In this document: one piece after another, positions 32,228-42,593 of the stretch
How the letters are laid out: each line of letters starts with the position of its first letter
How positions within the stretch are numbered: position 1 is the stretch's first letter
Virus record (IMG/VR): IMGVR_UViG_3300044568_003751
Coordinates: 25,312-89,311 of that record
Length of the DNA stretch: 64,000 nt
Source: a virus
Reading direction: 5' to 3' (one strand)
Translations under genes and position numbers: made by a program
The notes under the pieces: generated by a model
Told to the model about the DNA's origin: nothing
Database searches by the model: none
The model's input: only the letters and a program-made list of their open reading frames with translations

Positions 32228-32239
32228 ATTTGAGAAAAA

Positions 32240-32290
32240 CCCTGTCGTGTGAGCCAACTTCCGGGAGTGGGCAACTCACAGAGGACAGGG
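32240..32290 (-). ncRNA. Long imperfect hairpin of unknown function (possible terminator)
   Basis: CCCTGTC/GACAGGG and TGTGAG/CTCACA stems followed by U5 on -. Confidence 0.45.
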
Positions 32291-32308
32291 CCGTGTTGTT
32301 ATTACTTG

Positions 32309-32782
32309 TTAGGCTGCACGTAGATCTTTGAATCTATCTGCCGCATATGAAGCCGCAAACGCATCGGGTTTGACAAAAGGTATAACATTACACACACCTT
32401 TGATGTAGCCTATGGCCTGTGATATTACACAACTTGATCCGTGTATTTCGTCTGGGTTGATGTCCAAGTGAACTTCAACTTCACGTCCTTCTAGTACTTC
32501 GGCCAGTTTCAAGTACAATTCGCTCACTTTGTACACTTCGGTCATCAACCTTAAACTGGGACGACTGGCTCGTTGATCCCAGTCGCGTTCACGTTGCACT
32601 TCACCAAACAGTTTGCAACCGTTGTTGCCATTGATGTGTACCACAATGGCCAACACATAGTCAGCATGCCAGGCACCGTTGATTTTTACACGCTCTGAAT
32701 CGCAACCAAGATAGATTCGAGTTTCGGGTGTTTGCGCCCGTATAAACTGTGCCACTTGGTCAATGTCTAGTTTTTTCATCAT
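32309..32782 (-). CDS. RNase H-like YkuK (DUF458) family protein
   Basis: IYLGCDS, RLMTEV, EVHLDIN, KPDAFAASYAADR. Confidence 0.85.
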   Translation of the reverse strand: MMKKLDIDQVAQFIRAQTPETRIYLGCDSERVKINGAWHADYVLAIVVHINGNNGCKLFGEVQRERDWDQRASRPSLRLMTEVYKVSELYLKLAEVLEGREVEVHLDINPDEIHGSSCVISQAIGYIKGVCNVIPFVKPDAFAASYAADRFKDLRAA

Positions 32783-32823
32783 CGTCTTTCTATTTAACTC
32801 AAAAACTGTTACAGTTTTATTAA

Positions 32824-32904
32824 TGGTACCCCGGGTGGGAGTTGAACCCACATTTGAATTTCTCCTTTTGAGAGAGATGACTTTGCCAATTTGTCTACCG
32901 GGGC
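32824..32904 (-). tRNA. tRNA-Leu(CAA)
   Basis: CTCAAAA loop, CCA. Confidence 0.9.
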
Positions 32905-32907
32905 AAT

Positions 32908-32990
32908 TGGTACGAGTAGCCGGACTTGAACCGGCAAGCCTAAGCGGAAGATTTTAAATCTTCTGAGTTTACCAATTTCTCCATACTCGC
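32908..32990 (-). tRNA. tRNA-Leu(UAA)
   Basis: GAAGA-TTTAAAA-TCTTC, long variable arm, CCA. Confidence 0.93.
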
Positions 32991-32994
32991 TGAA

Positions 32995-33071
32995 TGGTGC
33001 CCCAAGAGAGACTCGAACTCTCAAAATTTGGCTTCTAAGACCAACACGTATACCAATTCCGTCATCGGGGC
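32995..33071 (-). tRNA. tRNA-Leu(UAG), short variable loop
   Basis: TTGGT-CTTAGAA-GCCAA; 77 nt. Confidence 0.9.
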
Positions 33072-33236
33072 AAATAAATATCATTATGATTACAATTGAA
33101 CATGCTATGCAAACGTTATTCCAAATATCTGGTACACAGCCGTATGTGCCAGAAACTCATGCTACCACCACTAGACAATTCACTGTGAATGCCATGCTAG
33201 AGCCGCTGAATCTAAAGTTCAAACTAGATCCCTTGT

Positions 33237-33312
33237 TGGTGCCTCCTCCAGGTTCCGACCCTGGTTCCCCGGATTTTCAATCCGGTGCTATGACCACATC
33301 AGCTAAAGAGGC
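33237..33312 (-). tRNA. tRNA-Phe(GAA)
   Basis: CCGGA-TTGAAAA-TCCGG; atypical T loop GTCGGAA. Confidence 0.9.
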
Positions 33313-33317
33313 GTAAT

Positions 33318-33391
33318 TGGTACCTCGTGACAGAATCGAACTGCCGTAACCGCCGTGTAAAGACGGAGTTCTACCATTAAACTAACGAGGC
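33318..33391 (-). tRNA. tRNA-Val(UAC)
   Basis: TTTACAC loop, CCA. Confidence 0.93.
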
Positions 33392-33396
33392 GTATT

Positions 33397-33488
33397 TGGC
33401 GGAAGACGGAGGAGTCGAACCCCATCCGATTTCTCGGAACCTGGTTTTCAAGGCCAGTCGCGGCACCAACCCCGCTGCATCATCTTCC
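33397..33488 (-). tRNA. tRNA-Ser(UGA), atypical D region
   Basis: CTTGAAA loop, long variable arm, GCCA end. Confidence 0.85.
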
Positions 33489-33504
33489 TTATTGAATTAA
33501 AAAA

Positions 33505-33680
33505 AGTACTACCCGATGTTTAAGGGTATAGAACATCCTTTCGGGTAGCCCTTGTCCCTCCAGCAACATAAAACGACTGTGACTAGCAGTCTACCGCGGC
33601 TTTCGCCCGTTCAGCGGCGCTGGATCTAATAAGGTCCCTGGTAGTTGGGCCCATAGTCAATGAGTTTTTAACACACTTTT
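33505..33680 (-). ncRNA. Unannotated structured RNA between tRNA-Cys and tRNA-Ser
   Basis: Stems TCCAGC/GCTGGA, CCGC/GCGG, GGC-GAAA-GCC, GACTG/CAGTC, CTACCCGA/TCGGGTAG. Confidence 0.55.
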
Positions 33681-33688
33681 TCTAAACT

Positions 33689-33766
33689 TGGAGTAGCGGG
33701 TGAGATTCGAACTCACGGCTTTACGGATTTGCAATCCGTTCCCTTGGACCACTCGGGCACCGCTAC
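33689..33766 (-). tRNA. tRNA-Cys(GCA)
   Basis: ACGGA-TTGCAAA-TCCGT, U73, CCA. Confidence 0.93.
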
Positions 33767-33772
33767 ATAAAT

Positions 33773-33925
33773 TTAACTTGGCACAATATGAGGAATGTAA
33801 GGAACGGCTCGAGGTCCGCCGTACATCTGCTCAAACAACTTCTTGGCTTCCTGCGGTGTGCCCGCATAGATACGCTTTTTTTCTTCGCCCTGTGGTGTGC
33901 GAACTGTTGTTTCATACATTGGCAT
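33773..33925 (-). CDS. Small protein (50 aa, MPMYETTVRTPQGEEKKRIYA...)
   Basis: Read by eye; AGGAGA RBS. Confidence 0.7.
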   Translation of the reverse strand: MPMYETTVRTPQGEEKKRIYAGTPQEAKKLFEQMYGGPRAVPYIPHIVPS

Positions 33926-33939
33926 ATTATTCTCCTAAT

Positions 33940-34016
33940 TGGTCCGAGTAGTAGGATTCAAACCTACGACCCTCTGGTCCCAAACCAGATGCGCTATCAG
34001 GCTGCGCTATACTCGG
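33940..34016 (-). tRNA. tRNA-Pro(UGG)
   Basis: TCTGG-TTTGGGA-CCAGA. Confidence 0.93.
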
Positions 34017-34022
34017 GTAATT

Positions 34023-34250
34023 TTATTTCTTGGCCGACAACGGCTCTTGTGACTTTTCTATCTCTGATGTCTCGGCAAATCCTGCATTGCCACCAAAACC
34101 TTTCCAGCTGTCTTCTGTAAAAATTCTAACAGGTCGCCAGAAGCGGGCAATGATGTTGTTGATCACCACAATTCCAATTGCCACAGCAATAAAGCCTAAT
34201 GCTGTCAAAACACTACCGGCTAAAAATACCGCCGCTTGATCCATGTCCAT
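34023..34250 (-). CDS. Small membrane protein
   Basis: One long hydrophobic helix; AAGGA RBS. Confidence 0.7.
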   Translation of the reverse strand: MDMDQAAVFLAGSVLTALGFIAVAIGIVVINNIIARFWRPVRIFTEDSWKGFGGNAGFAETSEIEKSQEPLSAKK

Positions 34251-34267
34251 AAGTTTTTCCTTAATTT

Positions 34268-34341
34268 TGGAGCGGGATGAGAGAATCGAACTCTCAACTC
34301 TAACTTGGAAGGATAGCGTTTTGCCACTAAACTAATCCCGC
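34268..34341 (-). tRNA. tRNA-Gly(UCC)
   Basis: CTTCCAA loop, CCA. Confidence 0.92.
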
Positions 34342-34387
34342 GTTGAACATGTAGTATACAATATTTTTTGGATATTGTAAAGACATT

Positions 34388-34461
34388 TGGTTCCCTGTCG
34401 AGGTAACGATCCTCGGTCTCTCGATTATCAGTCGAGTGCTCTACCTTTGAGCTAACGGGGA
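34388..34461 (-). tRNA. tRNA-Ile(GAU)
   Basis: CTCGA-CTGATAA-TCGAG; T loop ATCGTTA. Confidence 0.92.
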
Positions 34462-34467
34462 AAATAC

Positions 34468-34541
34468 TGGCACGGGAACTAGGGCTCGAACCTAGAATGA
34501 CAGAGTCAAAGTCTGTAGTGTTACCATTACACTATTCCCGA
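34468..34541 (-). tRNA. tRNA-Gln(UUG)
   Basis: ACAGA-CTTTGAC-TCTGT. Confidence 0.93.
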
Positions 34542-34553
34542 ACAAAAACTTTA

Positions 34554-34628
34554 TGGTGGATGAGAGTAGAGTCGAACTACCACTTGACTCCGTATGAAGG
34601 AGGCGCACTACCATTATGCTACTCATCC
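34554..34628 (-). tRNA. tRNA with CAU anticodon (elongator Met or Ile2)
   Basis: CTCC-TTCATAC-GGAG, CCA. Confidence 0.85.
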
Positions 34629-34630
34629 AT

Positions 34631-34707
34631 TGGGGTGCATGATGGGATTCGAACCCACGCATATCGGAATCACAATCCGAGGTCTTGACCGCTTGACGAC
34701 ACGCACC
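34631..34707 (-). tRNA. tRNA-His(GUG)
   Basis: TTGTGAT loop, G-1:C73. Confidence 0.93.
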
Positions 34708-34741
34708 ATATAGAAACACACCAAGCAAATATGTTTTCATA

Positions 34742-34816
34742 TGGTAGGGGCACAGAGAATCGAACTCTGATTTACGGGTTAAAAGCCCGCTACTTTGGCC
34801 GTTAAGTTATACCCCC
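34742..34816 (-). tRNA. tRNA-Lys(UUU)
   Basis: GCGGG-CTTTTAA-CCCGT. Confidence 0.93.
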
Positions 34817-34868
34817 ACTAATCTTATCACTCTTGTCACAGTCTATGGGACTCTCCTTTTAAAATATT

Positions 34869-34943
34869 TGGTACCGCTGGAAGGAATCAAACCTCCATCC
34901 CCACGTTCGTAGCATGGTGTCCTGTTCATTGAACGACAGCGAT
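34869..34943 (-). tRNA. tRNA-Arg(ACG)
   Basis: CCATG-CTACGAA-CGTGG. Confidence 0.88.
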
Positions 34944-34948
34944 ATGAT

Positions 34949-35022
34949 TGGTGCCCCATGAGAGAATCGAACTCCCGTACCCGGATTACAAAACCGGTGT
35001 AATGCCATTATACTAATAGGGC
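34949..35022 (-). tRNA. tRNA-Thr(UGU)
   Basis: TTTGTAA loop, CCA. Confidence 0.93.
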
Positions 35023-35028
35023 AAATTT

Positions 35029-35116
35029 TGGCGGAGTATGTAGGAATCGAACCTACTCGCCCATTTCTGAACGACAGTTTAGCAAACTGTTGCCTTAACC
35101 GGTCGGCCAATACTCC
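35029..35116 (-). tRNA. tRNA-Ser(GCU)
   Basis: TTGCTAA loop, long variable arm. Confidence 0.93.
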
Positions 35117-35124
35117 ATACTTAC

Positions 35125-35203
35125 TGGCTCCGCATTTCGGAATCGGACCGAACTAACCAGGGATTAACAGTCCCGCCCATGCACCTTGCTCGGGTTCTGC
35201 GGA
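35125..35203 (-). tRNA. tRNA-Asn(GUU)
   Basis: GGGA-CTGTTAA-TCCC, GCCA end. Confidence 0.88.
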
Positions 35204-35244
35204 ATAAAACTACTTAGCAGGCACTCATGCCTGCCTTAAAAACA

Positions 35245-35489: not shown

Positions 35490-35649
35490 ACGTCACACTG
35501 TTGCCAATGTGTGTATCAAAACACACTCTAAGAATATGCTTTGATACGCTCGGATTTTTTTTGTGTACAAGAACACAAGCCATCCCCGAGGCCGCCCATT
35601 TGCAGTTTTGAGTGTTGCAGGCTCGCGTTGCCATTGCACTTGATAACGC

Positions 35650-35697
35650 TTATTGCACGTTATCGTGAATCCACTTCCAGTACTCTTCTGTTGTCAT
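35650..35697 (-). CDS. 15-aa mini-ORF MTTEEYWKWIHDNVQ
   Basis: AAGGAGA RBS; lies between the attenuator terminator and tRNA-Trp. Confidence 0.5.
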   Translation of the reverse strand: MTTEEYWKWIHDNVQ

Positions 35698-35710
35698 CGC
35701 TGTTCTCCTT

Positions 35711-35745
35711 AAAAAGAAAAACCCTGGAGTTTTTAGTTCCAGGGT
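35711..35745 (-). terminator. Intrinsic terminator of putative attenuator 1
   Basis: ACCCTGGA-loop-TCCAGGGT followed by TTTTCTTTTT. Confidence 0.85.
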
Positions 35746-35774
35746 CCTTGGCTTAGATACGATTGTATACTACG

Positions 35775-35888
35775 TTAAGACCCTGTGTCTCCTAGAATGA
35801 TTGCTGTTGGGCGACCATAGGCATGTGACCAGGCTGGTGCCTGATTAAACATTGTCTTGGTTAGCAGTGAACAGATTTGTGTTTTCAT
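35775..35888 (-). CDS. Putative leader peptide 1 (37 aa, MKTQICSLLTKTMFNQAPAWSHAYGRPTAIILGDTGS)
   Basis: ATG 7 nt after a consensus -10; 3' end complementary to the terminator 5' arm. Confidence 0.6.
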   Translation of the reverse strand: MKTQICSLLTKTMFNQAPAWSHAYGRPTAIILGDTGS

Positions 35889-35895
35889 AGTATCA

Positions 35896-35924
35896 ATTAT
35901 AGTTTATTTACCTTTGTGTGTCAA
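35896..35924 (-). promoter_or_regulatory. Consensus sigma70 promoter heading the main tRNA operon
   Basis: TTGACA-N17-TATAAT; spacer also contains TAAATA. Confidence 0.85.
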
Positions 35925-35965
35925 TCACTTTGGCAAACTTTTTTGTTGTATTTACGCAACAGATT

Positions 35966-37096
35966 TTATTCACCTATACAGAAGGGTTTGCTGTAGATTG
36001 GTGCACCAACATCTTTTCCAATTATGCTGTTAACGGGATTGGTACTGTTTTCTATCAAATGATTACAAAAGTTTTTTTCTAACAAAAGATTTTTTATGCC
36101 TTTTACAAAAAGATCGGCCACAACATTGTCCTTCTTTAGCAAGGCATCTAGGCCAGTATCAAATGTTCGGGAAAGATCACCGTCAATGGTGTCCATTGTT
36201 ATTACTACTGATTCAAATTTATTTTCTTGTATTTTTTGTGTGAAACTGCCACCTGATACTATCTCTTTTTGTCTAGACAAATTTTTTGCCCAAGAAATAT
36301 AAGCGGCATTAGAAGAAATTCTAAATTTTGCGCCAGTAGGATCTAGACTAGCATTGTATGCATTTGCATTCATACGAAGTTTAAGCATTTTTTTAATCAT
36401 ATGACTTTGTTTGAGTGCCAAGACTGGGGCAGTAAAAAAACATTCAATATTCTCAAAATTCATTGTACTCAGCAAGGTTCTTGCATCATGACATGAATAA
36501 TATTTGTTATCTTTCTTGAATACTCTAGGTTGCTCGTGTCCAGTAATCAAACACCAAGTTGATCCACCAAACTGGTCGGCACAGTAATCCCACATGACAG
36601 AGTCCATGGTTCCCATGGCAAATTTAGGAATCATAGAAATATTTTTAAAAATCCAATCTTCTCCGGTTACAATTTGTTGTTTAGCCGCAGGATCAAATCG
36701 TTCTTTGACAGTGATTTTGGTCAAGGGATCATGATGATTATTTTTCAGCCAATCCACATACTGTGAATTGTACCAGGGCTCGTACTGATCATTTACCCAG
36801 ATAACAATTTCATCAATATGCAAATTATTACGTTTGAACACTTCGTAGATGGTCTGACTGTCAGTGCCACCGCTCCAGGACAGCATAACGTGTTGATATT
36901 TGTTTCTTAAATTACATGCATGGCGATCCATCAGTTGATCAAGAGACTCGGTGGGTTCTTGCAACCAATTCAGTTGATCATTCTGTTGATCATGACAAAC
37001 AAACTCAATGGGTTTCTTGCTTACAAATGCCTCATATTTGGCAAGCAGGTGATTGAAAATTATTTTATTGTTGACACGAAAGTAGATGGAAGTCAT
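35966..37096 (-). CDS. PP-loop protein of unknown function
   Basis: LRNKY..LSWSGGTDS..FKRNNLHIDEI, GHEQPR; paralog of 43574..44689. Confidence 0.7.
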   Translation of the reverse strand: MTSIYFRVNNKIIFNHLLAKYEAFVSKKPIEFVCHDQQNDQLNWLQEPTESLDQLMDRHACNLRNKYQHVMLSWSGGTDSQTIYEVFKRNNLHIDEIVIWVNDQYEPWYNSQYVDWLKNNHHDPLTKITVKERFDPAAKQQIVTGEDWIFKNISMIPKFAMGTMDSVMWDYCADQFGGSTWCLITGHEQPRVFKKDNKYYSCHDARTLLSTMNFENIECFFTAPVLALKQSHMIKKMLKLRMNANAYNASLDPTGAKFRISSNAAYISWAKNLSRQKEIVSGGSFTQKIQENKFESVVITMDTIDGDLSRTFDTGLDALLKKDNVVADLFVKGIKNLLLEKNFCNHLIENSTNPVNSIIGKDVGAPIYSKPFCIGE

Positions 37097-37105
37097 GTGT
37101 ATGAT

Positions 37106-37179
37106 TGGATGCGGGGGACAGATTCGAACTGCCGATGCACCTGGCTTATGAGACCGGTGTGGTGACCGCCCTCCCCGCT
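37106..37179 (-). tRNA. tRNA-Met(CAU), initiator-like, reduced D arm
   Basis: A1.A72 mismatch, CTCATAA loop, GTTCGAATC, CCA. Confidence 0.75.
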
Positions 37180-37189
37180 GTGTATTTAA

Positions 37190-37417
37190 TGCTCTGCGTC
37201 CCCCGGCGGTAATTATAGTGTATCAGAAATTTGGTCAGCAAGCGATTAACTCACCAATTAGTCTATTCATCACTTACACCCTCCACCCGCTTCCCGACAG
37301 GGACCGTTCTCGTATTGCTAACGCCGGTTAGGTTGGACCGCTGATTGCTCAGTGAAACTTTTCCGTTTCAGAACCACCCGTAGTTGTCACACTACTTCTC
37401 ATCGTCGGGGTCAGACT
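37190..37417 (-). ncRNA. Unannotated structured RNA of about 230 nt
   Basis: Closing pairings TCTG/CAGA, CCCC/GGGG, GGTGGTT/AATTACC; several internal hairpins; no convincing ORF. Confidence 0.6.
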
Positions 37418-37508
37418 ATCCAGTGACGCTGGAACGTTTGGGAGAGGCCACGGTTGCAGGATCTAGTGCCTTTTGCAAGGGAAGTATCCAGGCGGTGCGG
37501 CCTCAAAC
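37418..37508 (-). ncRNA. Small structured RNA 3' of tRNA-Asp
   Basis: GTTTG/CAAAC, GAGGCCGC/GTGGCCTC, CCTT-GCAA-AAGG. Confidence 0.45.
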
Positions 37509-37509
37509 T

Positions 37510-37585
37510 TGGCGGTCTTAGGGGGTAACGATCCCCACTCTTACGGCGTGACAAGCCGTCGTGCGTCCATGAACACTTTAAGACC
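37510..37585 (-). tRNA. tRNA-Asp(GUC)
   Basis: TTGTCAC loop, GCCA end; T loop ATCGTTA. Confidence 0.92.
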
Positions 37586-37588
37586 AAA

Positions 37589-37742
37589 TTTTTATAGTCA
37601 AGCACCGAGAATGCCAATTTAGGAGTCCTGCGCTAACAGTTCCAAAGCCGATGCAGTTATATTAGGATCAGTCGCCGGCCGCTGTGACCCGAATAGTGTT
37701 GGCGTCCCAACACGATACCTTATCGATGCTTGACTATAAAAA
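37589..37742 (-). ncRNA. Unannotated RNA closed by a 16-bp perfect stem
   Basis: TTTTTATAGTCAAGCA ... TGCTTGACTATAAAAA; internal GTGTTGG-GACG-CCAACAC. Confidence 0.6.
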
Positions 37743-37745
37743 CAA

Positions 37746-37821
37746 TGGTGCTCCGTGGGGGAATCGAACCCCTCCTTACCCGCGTGAAAGGCGAGTGTCC
37801 TAACCGATAGACGAACGGAGC
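37746..37821 (-). tRNA. tRNA-Glu(UUC)
   Basis: CTTTCAC loop, CCA. Confidence 0.93.
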
Positions 37822-37830
37822 ATGTGATTT

Positions 37831-38024
37831 TACATTGAGGAACCATGTGGATCTTATTCTGCTTGGCTTGCGAGGCCAAGTCACCACGGTCATTACTGCC
37901 AGACGATCCGCCGCTTTTCTGAAACTGCAAGCAGTCTCGGCTTCATGACTGATAGCAAGTGGGCATCCGCCGATGCCAATTCACTTCTACCAATGCCACT
38001 AACGGGTCTGGTAACCTCTTTGTA
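37831..38024 (-). ncRNA. Unannotated multibranched RNA of about 195 nt
   Basis: TACA..GAGG/CCTC..TGTA closure, CCAGAC/GTCTGG, GGCATC/GATGCC, GAGACTG/CAGTTTC, CTTGGC/GCCAAG. Confidence 0.6.
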
Positions 38025-38081
38025 TATTTTAAAGATCTGTTGCAAGTAGTCTCGATCGACTTTGTTGCTTTGTTAAGTTCT

Positions 38082-38110
38082 ATTGTAGCAGAGTTTCAAT
38101 TTATGGTCTA
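38082..38110 (-). promoter_or_regulatory. Internal sigma70-type promoter
   Basis: TAGACC-N17-TACAAT with TG extended -10. Confidence 0.55.
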
Positions 38111-38114
38111 GCAC

Positions 38115-38143
38115 AAAAAAGAAAACCCTCCGAAGTGGAGGGT
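38115..38143 (-). terminator. Intrinsic terminator of putative attenuator 2
   Basis: ACCCTCC-ACTTC-GGAGGGT followed by TTTCTTTTTT. Confidence 0.88.
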
Positions 38144-38165
38144 CTTTGTAAGTAGTACTTTCGTA

Positions 38166-38243
38166 TTACAGGCAAAGTCCCCAATGGCAATCCCACTCAT
38201 GTTCTGAGCGAAGGGTTGTGATGATTGCAGTTGTTTGGTTCAT
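38166..38243 (-). CDS. Putative leader peptide 2 (25 aa, MNQTTAIITTLRSEHEWDCHWGLCL)
   Basis: ATG 6 nt after TATAAT; 3' end complementary to the terminator 5' arm. Confidence 0.6.
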   Translation of the reverse strand: MNQTTAIITTLRSEHEWDCHWGLCL

Positions 38244-38249
38244 AAGTGT

Positions 38250-38278
38250 ATTATATATGACAAGTGATTGAAAGTCAA
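38250..38278 (-). promoter_or_regulatory. Sigma70 promoter heading the Glu/Asp/Met operon
   Basis: TTGACT-N17-TATAAT. Confidence 0.8.
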
Positions 38279-38329
38279 GGCTTTTTGGCTCGATTGCAAG
38301 CAGGATCTCAACAAACTGTGTTACTTTGC

Positions 38330-39223
38330 TCATTTCTTAGTCAATAGTTTTACTGCCTGTTGATACTCACGCTCAATATCACGTGCAAACTCATCGGGTG
38401 TTTGTTTTCGGGGAACTCCAGCATGTACCACAGTAACAATTTGTTTTTGCACTTCTTCGTTGGCTCTAGCACTTTCTAGCACATTGTACAAGCGATCACG
38501 TGTGTCTTTGGGGGTGCCCGGTGGCGCCCAGAACCCAGTCCAGCCTTCTTGGCTGATATTGTACCCAAGTTCCACAAGACTTTTTATACCATTACGTCCC
38601 TTTGGGGTTAGTACTGCCAGGCCGTTTAGTTCTCCAGTGGCAACTCGATCCTCCAACAAGAAAGTAACAGTGGTAACTTCGATACTCTTGTTCATCAATG
38701 CCAACATGGCCGCATTGTCACCGTTGTAGTTCACCATGATGAGATTGGGATTGTTGCCCAACAATTCTTCAAGTGCAATTCTGGTAATAGCGCCATTGTT
38801 GCCCACGGCTACTGTGCGTGTTTTCAATGCAGACTTCAGTTGCTCAACTGTGCGGATGTCGGAGTCTTTGCGACTGATCAGCATCTGACCGTTTGTGGCA
38901 CCACGCATGAGTGGCACAATCTTTGTCATGATTTCGTGGGCCGCGGGGTTACTGGCAGAATTGTAAACCACTGCACTGCTACCGGTATACATCACAGTGT
39001 TGCCGTCGGGCTTGGCTGCCATCAACTCCTGCATGCCAACTAGGCCTTCGGCGCCAGGTTTGTTGACCACTATGGCCTCAACGCCCTGGCGTGCCAATTC
39101 CTTGGCATACACACGTGCCGCAAGGTCAGTGTTGCCTCCGGCCGCATAGGTAACAATAATTTTCAATGGTTCTGCCGCATGAGCAGAAGCCACAAGTAAT
39201 AGTGAGAGTAAAAGTTTTTTCAT
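38330..39223 (-). CDS. Bug/TctC tripartite tricarboxylate transporter substrate-binding protein
   Basis: Signal peptide, YAAGGNTD..AR, NKPGAEG, KPDGNT, W.GFWAPPGTP. Confidence 0.92.
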   Translation of the reverse strand: MKKLLLSLLLVASAHAAEPLKIIVTYAAGGNTDLAARVYAKELARQGVEAIVVNKPGAEGLVGMQELMAAKPDGNTVMYTGSSAVVYNSASNPAAHEIMTKIVPLMRGATNGQMLISRKDSDIRTVEQLKSALKTRTVAVGNNGAITRIALEELLGNNPNLIMVNYNGDNAAMLALMNKSIEVTTVTFLLEDRVATGELNGLAVLTPKGRNGIKSLVELGYNISQEGWTGFWAPPGTPKDTRDRLYNVLESARANEEVQKQIVTVVHAGVPRKQTPDEFARDIEREYQQAVKLLTKK

Positions 39224-39918
39224 AGTTGATCGTAATCCAATTTAAAAGGTACGCTAGATTCAGCAAGTGCTGTGAAACGATCTGTGACCAGGCCACTCAA
39301 TCGCAACAGAGCCCTGTGCCAATATCCAGCGTTAAAAGTGCTATGAGCACCTGTGGGCCAATCCCAATGCACAACATCTCCTGCTTGCCAGTGAGTGTAA
39401 ATTTCGTCTCCAAAAATAATACCTTGTCCCCAGCGCCAGTCAGTGAGCAATATTAACACACGACTGGCAGTGCGTCTATCATTTTGAAAAGCCGCAATTT
39501 CTTCGTCACTGAATTGAATCTTGTGTATACTGGATTCTTCAGGCGTGATATAACCGTATCCAAGTTCGTCGATGTGCAATGGTTGCAATGCACCTGGCGC
39601 AAGTGTTTGTACTCGACCACTGGGCTTGCGATAGCCAATCAAATGACCAATACGTTCTACCACGGTGGTATCGGTAACCAACCATCTATCAAAGTCTTTT
39701 GGGTCTGCGGACTCGCCAACAATGGTGCTGATATCAGTGTCTTTGTAGCCCAGTTCTTGGGTCAACTGTTCTGCCACTGCCAGCCGGCTGATGTGTTTTG
39801 CTTCCTGCAAACTGGGAATACTTTGTGCAATAGTCTGTCCGTGACTTAGAAATTTATTCCAACTTTGATGTGGAGGGATATTACGGATGTTGCCTATATA
39901 TTTATAATGTTTTGTCAT
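39220..39918 (-). CDS. Hypothetical cupin/2OG-Fe(II)-like protein
   Basis: PG..QPLHID, W.AGDV..W, HSTFNAG..R. Confidence 0.6.
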   Translation of the reverse strand: MTKHYKYIGNIRNIPPHQSWNKFLSHGQTIAQSIPSLQEAKHISRLAVAEQLTQELGYKDTDISTIVGESADPKDFDRWLVTDTTVVERIGHLIGYRKPSGRVQTLAPGALQPLHIDELGYGYITPEESSIHKIQFSDEEIAAFQNDRRTASRVLILLTDWRWGQGIIFGDEIYTHWQAGDVVHWDWPTGAHSTFNAGYWHRALLRLSGLVTDRFTALAESSVPFKLDYDQL

Positions 39919-41135: not shown

Positions 41136-41188
41136 GTAAGGTTAAAGTTGCTCCGAGCAAATATTTATATTGGCAATTTTTGTTTATA

Positions 41189-41210
41189 AAAATAGGCTCC
41201 GGGGAGCCTA
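41189..41210 (-). terminator. Intrinsic terminator after tmRNA
   Basis: TAGGCTCC-CC-GGAGCCTA followed by U tract on -. Confidence 0.8.
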
Positions 41211-41212
41211 CC

Positions 41213-41501
41213 TGGTGATTTCTGTTACGAGGTATTTCCTACCCTAGGCTACAATCAAGCGGCCAATGCGAACTGTGAGTCGTTTGCGTTTACTTTTGTT
41301 TAGTTTTTACGACTATCGCTGTCGTGCTGTCCACTCTGTTACTCTTTGCCCTGTCGAAACTATGCAGGCCCGGCATAAAAACACAATACCAAAGTAAATT
41401 TACACGGAATACCAAAGTAAATTTATTATGCTTTTATGGTGGACCTGGGGGGATTCGCACCCCCGTCCAGAACACTTTTCTCTCGGCTTCATACAGCAAT
41501 A
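41213..41501 (-). ncRNA. ssrA: Circularly permuted (two-piece) tmRNA, tag (A)ANDSQFALAA
   Basis: Acceptor piece ..GGGGGTGCGAATCCCCCCAGGTCCACCA (ends 41437) precedes the coding piece GGGCCTG..TTCGAC (starts 41371); tag at 41255-41287. Confidence 0.92.
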
Positions 41502-41543
41502 ACTTACATTATACATTTGTATAACGCTGTTGTCTATTTATTC

Positions 41544-42593
41544 TTACATATTGGCAAAATAATTCTTGATTTCGCCTTGTCTTCTGATATCAACAGTTAT
41601 ACAATGCAAGCCGCCATCCCAAAATCCTCTGGTGCGGAATGGTAGTACGTGAACATTAAATCCATGTTTCTCCAGTTGTTCAAAAACATTTTGATCGCTA
41701 CCTATCACCAAAATATTTTTTTCATCTACTATCAAACAGTTTACTTCAAAGAATGTTTCGGTGTAATTTCCTATCCATTCTTTAGCATGTTCCAAAACAA
41801 AATTGTTGAAATTTGGACTCATTGGTAAATTTGGAACATACCAGCGCCCATTACCAGAATTGGGAAACGTTGCTGCCAGCAATGCGGCATGATTCTTGAA
41901 TTCGGGTTTTGCTACACTGATGAAATCCCAACCTGGAAAATTGTCTTTATAGTATTCAAAATAAGCAGTGACCAACAACAACCCGGGACGTAACACAGCA
42001 AATCCTGCATCACAGTGTCCACCTTGGGTGAGCATGTGACATTTATGATTTGGCCATAGATGTGGTACGTGTTTTTGAAATTCTAACAGGCGTTCTTGTG
42101 CATCTACATTCCAGTCAAATCCAGTATCCAAGAAAAAATCTTGCCCCAATTTGACTGCATTTGCACCAATGAGATTCAACCTACAAGGATTTTTTATAAC
42201 CCTTGACTCCGGGTCATTGGTATATTCCTCCAGCAAATGTCTCCAAGGAAAATTTTCTTTTAATCTTTCATCCAGCCAAGTGTCCACTACCATGGTATTG
42301 CCAAATGTTAGAAAACTATCTCGAGGGCATATTTCAGGTTTGAACAGCATTCCGTCAGGAGAAGAAAAATAATCTTCTCTGCGATCCGAATACACAGGGC
42401 GCCGAACCTTGACTCCCAGTTGTTCCAGTTTGTTGTGTATGATTTGGAGATCTTCTCGGGTCCACTCGATGATTGTTTTTAATACATCTCTATAGTTTAC
42501 ATCCACGTGGTCAAAGAACTCTGGTGGATATACATCTCCCAACCAAACTTCTTCTAATTTTGTAAAACTATCAAATGACTTGATTAACGGCAT
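41544..42593 (-). CDS. Amidinotransferase, second paralog
   Basis: LEEVWLG, PRD, GHCD, FEVN, WDGGLHCIT.DIRR. Confidence 0.85.
   Translation of the reverse strand: MPLIKSFDSFTKLEEVWLGDVYPPEFFDHVDVNYRDVLKTIIEWTREDLQIIHNKLEQLGVKVRRPVYSDRREDYFSSPDGMLFKPEICPRDSFLTFGNTMVVDTWLDERLKENFPWRHLLEEYTNDPESRVIKNPCRLNLIGANAVKLGQDFFLDTGFDWNVDAQERLLEFQKHVPHLWPNHKCHMLTQGGHCDAGFAVLRPGLLLVTAYFEYYKDNFPGWDFISVAKPEFKNHAALLAATFPNSGNGRWYVPNLPMSPNFNNFVLEHAKEWIGNYTETFFEVNCLIVDEKNILVIGSDQNVFEQLEKHGFNVHVLPFRTRGFWDGGLHCITVDIRRQGEIKNYFANM

Follow-up and report, generated by a model that had tools for sequence, protein, structure and literature searches.

In mitochondria, where tRNA punctuation was described, and among the spacer RNAs of Escherichia coli tRNA operons, the processing of transfer RNAs (tRNAs) sets the ends of their neighbours, and in the theta ribozymes, which are like that of hepatitis delta virus (HDV), a structured RNA lies directly after the 3' end of a phage tRNA. 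Whereas phage tRNA islands are usually read as a plain supply of tRNAs, a single operon of 1 kb in the window analysed here (64,000 nucleotides (nt) of the virus record IMGVR_UViG_3300044568_003751, numbered from the first letter) carries four constrained folds outside Rfam. Among the RNAs already known from phages and prophages, passages of PMC12286853 present GOLLD and ROOL as ornate, of unassigned function and "often near tRNA islands", with tRNAs sometimes inside GOLLD, and the small, stable species 1 and 2 RNAs of phage T4 (rnaC, 139 nt, and rnaD, 119 nt), seen by Northern blot, are described in a section of PMC9697503 as "of yet unknown functions". The record under study, of 89,311 bases and 26% complete by CheckV, comes from an uncultured giant freshwater (lake) phage, because nearly all the sequencing runs containing the window's DNA are lake-water metagenomes and the related phage records reach sizes of up to 330-374 kb.

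The array consists of four uncatalogued structured RNA genes (A, B, C1 and C2) interleaved with tRNAs, and reads, on the minus strand, promoter-like site, leader open reading frame (ORF), terminator, A, tRNA-Glu, B, tRNA-Asp, C1, C2 and tRNA(CAU), a tRNA-like gene with this anticodon (Table 1). A preliminary description had proposed a tRNA-punctuated array of non-coding RNAs; the array itself is real, several of the details given for it were wrong, and its interpretation holds in part, the spacers being discrete structured RNAs, all four of which covary and exist as separate modules with changing order and tRNA neighbours, while their release by tRNA processing is presumed. The operon is probably best read as a set of tRNA genes with four independent structured non-coding RNA genes, released from one precursor by tRNA processing.

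On comparative grounds, each of the four spacers belongs to a conserved, covarying RNA gene family. Covariation among homologues, whose lack had been named beforehand as the sign that the proposal fails, is present throughout: compensatory changes occur in 22 of the 32 predicted pairs of A (23 sequences), in 29 of 36 pairs of B (30 sequences), nearly the whole closing stem included, in 12 of 19 pairs of C1 (23 sequences) and in 27 of the 39 pairs that RNAalifold gives for C2 (47 sequences, mean column identity 51%). The spacers are judged to be more than chance because of this covariation, which is decisive over the folding of single sequences. Folding was strongest for B (z -5.53, with none of 200 shuffles folding as well), followed by A (z -2.96, 0/200), C1 (z -2.73, 2/200) and C2 (z -1.47, 17/200); for whole spacers as earlier drawn, before their borders were refined, z had been weak (-1.0, -1.5). 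Iterated profile searches of the collected loci gave distinct copies of all four families, 34 for A, 39 for B, 28 for C1 and 98 for C2. Moreover, all four families retain many invariant unpaired bases, which argue for a specific tertiary structure or for partners, and against mere spacers.

Table 1. Positions of the array elements and of neighbouring genes in the window
Feature	Positions	Strand	Remarks
Promoter, sigma-70-like	38250-38278	minus	Putative; TTGACT, 17 nt, TATAAT; consensus scan, 11/12 hexamer positions
Leader ORF	38166-38243	minus	Predicted; 25 codons, MNQTTAIITTLRSEHEWDCHWGLCL; towards its end, codons for Glu, Glu and Asp
Intrinsic terminator-like hairpin	38122-38146	minus	From scan; 10 pairs, then T run (U run in RNA)
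RNA A	37826-38037	minus	About 212 nt; multibranched; closing stem long and A/U-rich; heads the operon
tRNA-Glu (UUC)	37746-37821	minus	ARAGORN; Rfam tRNA model 49.7 bits; canonical
RNA B	37586-37745	minus	160 nt; terminal stem of 21 bp; interior branched and conserved
tRNA-Asp (GUC)	37510-37585	minus	ARAGORN; unusual T-loop AUCGUUA
RNA C1	37439-37509	minus	Hairpin of about 65 nt; invariant internal loops
RNA C2	37189-37438	minus	About 250 nt; five hairpins (H1-H5); long-range helix closing the 3' domain; pseudoknot; about 60 invariant positions
tRNA(CAU), tRNA-like	37106-37179	minus	Initiator-like, non-canonical; Rfam 17.3 bits, E 2.3
376-aa ORF	35966-37096	minus	Directly downstream of the array; without Pfam match
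TctC-family gene	38330-39223	minus	Tripartite tricarboxylate transporter receptor; just upstream of the operon; signal-peptide-like start
Transfer-messenger RNA (tmRNA)	41164-41550	minus	Fits betaproteobacterial and permuted tmRNA models; tag peptide ANDSQFALAA

The limits of the spacers were set from homologues and from the joints found in RNA-library contigs. Three gaps hold non-tRNA sequence close to where it had been placed, A running from 38037 to 37826 (earlier 37831-38024) and B from 37745 to 37586 (earlier 37589-37742). The border between C1 and C2, put at 37417/37418, was about 21 nt off and lies at 37438/37439, where the homologues begin and from where an RNA-library contig skips from 37438 to 37509. 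That the ends of each spacer pair within a few nt of the tRNA boundary is correct for A, B (by its 21-bp stem) and C1, and incorrect for C2, whose closing helix encloses the 3' domain only, leaving the ends of the RNA unpaired. Similarly, the spacers (GC content 0.49-0.54) are richer in GC than the downstream gene (0.31-0.40), as had been said of both flanks, but not than the upstream TctC-like gene (0.46-0.56).

The array is 96% identical to that of its one close relative, L001 (IMGVR_UViG_3300027754_003437), while the adjacent protein reaches only 82%, and the differences are clustered in hairpin stems as paired changes. The spacers lack a good ORF, as had been noted, the longest on the minus strand (103 amino acids (aa), 37619-37930) running across tRNA-Glu. 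Insertions and deletions relative to L001 measure 8, 1, 1, 2 and 9 nt; since these are not multiples of three and ORFs occur only across tRNA genes, the spacers are not expected to be small protein genes. The latter form part of a wider explanation by selfish DNA or decayed genes, in which B would be a miniature inverted-repeat element and the other spacers degenerate tRNAs or intron remnants. B is in fact bounded by a 23-nt inverted repeat, and C1, similar to a tRNA in length, occupies a tRNA slot. Nevertheless, no Rfam match to a tRNA or an intron was found in the spacers, B is found once per record, and its stem covaries around a conserved interior, which is the pattern of selection on an RNA and not of transposition, so that this explanation is very improbable.

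The covariance model R1, a check that the preliminary description had called for, finds one copy of B in each of four of five phage records, and within the 64-kb window the arm of its clamp occurs nowhere else at one mismatch or less; the idea of a clamp helix common to other cassettes was consequently rejected. The B stem, with 21 contiguous pairs and covarying, matches the uninterrupted duplex of about 20 base pairs (bp) or more expected of a processing stem for ribonuclease (RNase) III. Such stems lead to another explanation, according to which the spacers are only cis-acting processing or insulator elements, which prevent misfolding of the pre-tRNAs, offer sites to RNase III or RNase E and are degraded after cleavage. 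The long closing stems of A and B (21 bp in the latter) fit this function, rRNA operons carry similar processing stems, and all the elements lie inside tRNA operons. However, an insulator needs a stem only, whereas even distant phages have many invariant unpaired positions in common (about 60 in C2, as well as the loops and junctions of B and C1); furthermore, C2 has no clamp stem, and the interiors of the elements are kept while the tRNA neighbours change. The insulator function on its own is therefore regarded as unlikely.

The independence of the four RNAs is seen in their arrangement in other phages. BLAST against 20 related virus records shows the pieces of the array recurring separately, and 92 distinct arrangements have been mapped, in which the interior of each family is kept while its tRNA neighbours change. 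The order in one relative (G020) is tRNA-Glu, C1, tRNA-Tyr, C2, B, tRNA-Asp, and at the locus L030 a tRNA-Tyr stands between C1 and C2. Judging from these comparisons, A, B, C1 and C2 are separate modules that related phages place beside different tRNAs. A tRNA is present within 20 nt upstream and downstream, respectively, in 19/28 and 16/28 copies of C1, in 9/39 and 23/38 copies of B, in 57/95 (10 tRNA kinds) and 37/96 (9 kinds) copies of C2, and in 1/33 and 18/33 copies of A, the almost complete lack of a tRNA upstream of A being expected for the head element of a unit. The gaps between element and tRNA are typically -2 to +10 nt and so resemble those between tRNAs in the same loci, of which 781 of 1606 measure 20 nt or less; among the copies without a called tRNA nearby, some are followed by an ORF, by a non-canonical tRNA or by one of the other elements. 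By the counts of these flush junctions, the elements occupy "tRNA slots", as the punctuation model predicts.

The same borders are met in RNA libraries. On each element there are contigs from metatranscriptomes (four runs, four studies), these being assembled contigs in which carry-over of DNA is possible, and their joints coincide with module borders: 37438 to 37509 (skipping C1), 37585 to 37754 (skipping B) and 37745 to 37189 (B coming after C2). Unlike the array, the protein genes on either side (35924-37102 and 38806-39300) bear almost no such contigs; this contrast is not counted as evidence, because the relatives' contigs lie only on the better-conserved RNA parts and contigs are no measure of expression.

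C2 is the largest of the four. At least 120 IMG/VR contigs contain a 17-mer from its core, and 114 of 120 fit the whole C2 profile, with E values from 1e-100 to 1e-10; among the matches listed in bacterial genome contigs, 0 of 120 fit the profile, these being chance matches in GC-rich genomes and uninformative on absence. In three of five phage records the C2 hallmark occurs as one copy per record. When the pseudoknot and one tertiary pair are added to the fold, 98.4% of 2020 cells hold standard pairs and 30 of 43 pairs show compensatory changes, against 83.6% paired in shuffles, none of which (0/500) reaches the covariation score, and 35-51% when partners are slid. The pseudoknot joins the loop ACCC of H2 to a GGGU after H3; its support is thin, as two of its pairs show a compensatory change once each, in one sequence apiece. 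In H5, the final base of the loop covaries with a base 4 nt past the stem (alignment columns 160/167, window about 37304/37297; U-A in 43 sequences, C-G in 4), and the two likely form a tertiary or pseudoknot pair. A variable hairpin, which is replaced or absent in some homologues, has a flanking stem that covaries and bears a GA motif like that of C/D boxes and kink-turns. It gives the sole recurring sub-threshold Rfam match, models of C/D small nucleolar RNAs staying below threshold on C2 (snoZ17, 23.1 bits against 44, at 37217-37280, E 0.23; snoZ39, 20.8 against 39).

The features of C2, together with the position of A, allow a catalytic or cis-regulatory explanation, with C2 as a ribozyme acting at the junction between tRNA-CCA and C2 or on tRNA 3' ends, and A as a riboswitch-like leader controlling read-through. 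In many arrays C2 begins -2 to +3 nt after the encoded CCA, and it combines a pseudoknot with many junction bases that never vary, two UGGN words among them; A, for its part, has the distribution of tRNAs given above, seldom upstream and often downstream. Yet the ribozyme and riboswitch families of Rfam give no match even at E up to 10, the UGGN words remain constant while the discriminator base of the upstream tRNA varies among 10 tRNA kinds, the 5' end of C2 lies, as we read the fold, outside a nested double pseudoknot, and the scan found no terminator-like element at the 3' end of A. Roles of this type are accordingly thought rather unlikely. There is likewise only a slight chance that C2, maybe with C1, represents a new class of catalytic or tRNA-binding RNA, whose pseudoknotted core and UGGN words would act on the 3' ends of tRNAs or tmRNA or on its own precursor; if so, the tRNA operons of giant phages would be a delivery platform for a kit of RNA machines.

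A partnership between C1 and C2 was considered on account of an invariant UACUUC in an internal loop of C1 (37480-37475), which is complementary to an invariant GAAGUA beside H3 of C2 (37398-37393). Matching by genome brought no gain (mean run of 6.15 for pairs from the same genome, 5.99 for mismatched ones), and at the one variable position 20 variants comprise 15 Watson-Crick pairs, 3 wobbles and 2 mismatches, a weak signal uncorrected for kinship. A covarying interaction was rejected, there being no clear covariation between the constant 6-nt complements.

The three tRNA genes of the array differ in quality, and tRNA-Glu is the only one canonical by both ARAGORN and Rfam. The gene for tRNA-Asp, 100% identical in L001, is not reported by the Rfam tRNA model at the gathering score or at E up to 10. 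What had been called tRNA-Met is indeed a tRNA-like gene, though ARAGORN makes no call here or in L001 and the Rfam score falls below the gathering cut-off (17.3 against 29 bits). Its acceptor stem, of 7 bp, is mismatched at 1:72 (A·A in this phage, C·A in L001), which is a mark of bacterial initiator tRNAs; the gene further shows a standard 7-nt anticodon loop on a bulged 7-bp stem, a D arm of only 2-3 bp, a T arm and an encoded U-CCA end. ARAGORN calls tRNA-Met in the other 9 of 11 aligned sequences, six of which (L132, L077, L115, L156, L094 and L095) share the subtype, and covariation is seen both in the acceptor (pair 7:66) and in the long anticodon stem.

Upstream of A, consensus scans and one fold reveal hallmarks of an attenuator, namely a promoter-like site, a short predicted ORF with codons for tRNAs of the operon and a terminator-like hairpin. 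With its ending Ser-Glu-His-Glu-Trp-Asp..., the leader ORF contains Glu and Asp codons, and tRNA-Glu and tRNA-Asp are both encoded in the operon; the leader's lowest-energy fold (z -2.99) includes the terminator and places the Glu codons within a hairpin. In L001 the promoter-like site is near-identical and the leader ORF is kept with one residue changed, and the exact leader is carried by two distinct phages only. The array may thus be governed by a leader-peptide attenuator. Between the terminator and A there is a weaker promoter-like site (38110-38082), by means of which A could bypass the terminator switch.

If the tRNA-punctuated set of RNA genes is accepted, its expression could proceed as follows. 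A single precursor would be transcribed from 38278-38250 past the leader-peptide terminator switch, or from the site just upstream of A. We infer that the RNAs are then released by RNase P and tRNA 3' processing: the host RNase P, in cutting the 5' end of each tRNA, would generate the 3' ends of A, B and C2, and maturation of the tRNA 3' ends would free the 5' ends of B, C1 and C2; in A and B, RNase III cleavage in the long closing stems may contribute as well. The released RNAs would survive through ends locked in closing helices (A, B, C1) or through a compact pseudoknotted fold (C2). As a guess of low confidence, they might act in trans with the translation module of the phage (more than 25 tRNAs and the tmRNA), binding host or phage proteins, ribosomes or tRNAs.

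Several points weigh against this scheme. The RNA-library data, as assembled contigs with possible DNA carry-over, give no RNA ends, strand or abundance. A called tRNA is missing within 20 nt downstream of 59 of the 96 C2 copies, several of which precede an ORF with a ribosome-binding site, and C2 itself has no closing helix and a weak z (-1.47). Recognition by RNase P is assumed, two of the three punctuation tRNAs being non-canonical, and no result points to a molecular target.

The surroundings of the array are also rich in tRNA genes, the record holding 26 by ARAGORN, as well as one permuted tmRNA. In the main tRNA array (32228-35244, minus strand), five of six gaps tested (128-596 nt) have homologues in other phage loci; the 596-nt gap at 32228-32823 was found in 33 loci, and the 165-nt gap at 33072-33236 has no homologue there. 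Homologues also exist for 35490-35965 and 38122-38330, which brings the count to seven of eight stretches tested. The former, 476 nt of non-coding sequence on the minus strand between the 376-aa ORF and a tRNA-Trp, is conserved in 26 loci and sits behind a perfect TTGACA-17-TATAAT site (35924-35896); RNA-library contigs cover 35531-35792 inside it, and it may be another leader or RNA. The product of the 376-aa ORF has an invariant WSGGTDS motif, which we take to be PP-loop-like, and 101 metagenome homologues; in several relatives the ORF adjoins the tmRNA gene. A tie between C2 and this ORF was rejected, a homologue being present in only 6 of 114 C2 loci.

As regards known RNAs, Rfam 15 gives no match in the spacers at the gathering score (whole window) and nothing suggestive at E up to 10 (36900-38400), nor any spacer match in relatives, in five loci at the gathering score or in nine loci at E up to 5. 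The families proposed in the preliminary description (GOLLD, ROOL and HDV-like ribozymes) are thus not matched in the array or in related loci; for the GOLLD and ROOL models this covers the window (gathering score), 36900-38400 (E up to 10) and the nine related loci (E up to 5), and for the HDV-type models 36900-38400 and the nine loci, the presence of a theta model in Rfam 15 being unconfirmed. RNase P RNA, 6S RNA, signal recognition particle RNA, riboswitches and ribozymes were likewise rejected, with no Rfam match and only faint shared words by eye. A Y RNA acting with Ro (Rsr) was discarded too, as the TROVE domain (PF05731) occurs in none of five phage records, four of them 95-100% complete, while controls matched. 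Against named phages (blastn, 50,697 records), the array matched 46 records, each over 7% of the query or less and on tRNAs only. The literature searched, supplementary files aside, contains no description of these RNAs, and the portion of PMC7162821 consulted mentions tmRNAs and tRNAs, with no such RNAs.

The array therefore offers four defined candidates for work on structure and function, one of which (C2, with its pseudoknot and about 60 invariant bases) occurs in at least 114 giant-phage contigs, and it suggests that giant phages take over translation with the help of further RNAs besides tRNAs and tmRNA. It would also show how tRNA punctuation serves in nature to express several RNAs, the processing being presumed. 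In classic punctuation the neighbours of the tRNAs are mRNAs, rRNAs or short unstructured spacers, whereas here they are covarying structured RNAs that processing would release. With the theta ribozymes C2 shares its frequent position directly after a tRNA 3' end, but it is far larger, and in the covariation-supported fold its 5' strand lies outside any nested double pseudoknot.

The T4 RNAs resemble those of the array in that their genes (NC_000866, 70908-71171) lie on the same strand within a phage tRNA cluster, a few nt from a tRNA. Homology to rnaC and rnaD, considered on account of a palindromic 8-mer in common with a probe given in a passage of PMC9697503, was rejected, since the profiles of A, B, C1 and C2 (nhmmer --max) gave against T4 69800-72600 only one noise match, of E 0.52. 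Moreover, the T4 RNAs end like tRNAs (rnaD with a CCA end, rnaC with a T-arm-like hairpin), whereas A, B, C1 and C2 do not, and the present array comprises four families, one of them a pseudoknotted RNA of 250 nt. Finally, GOLLD and ROOL are likewise borne by phages and often lie close to tRNA islands; these are single units of about 580 to more than 800 nt, whereas the RNAs of the array, of 65-250 nt, are separate modules shuffled among the tRNAs.

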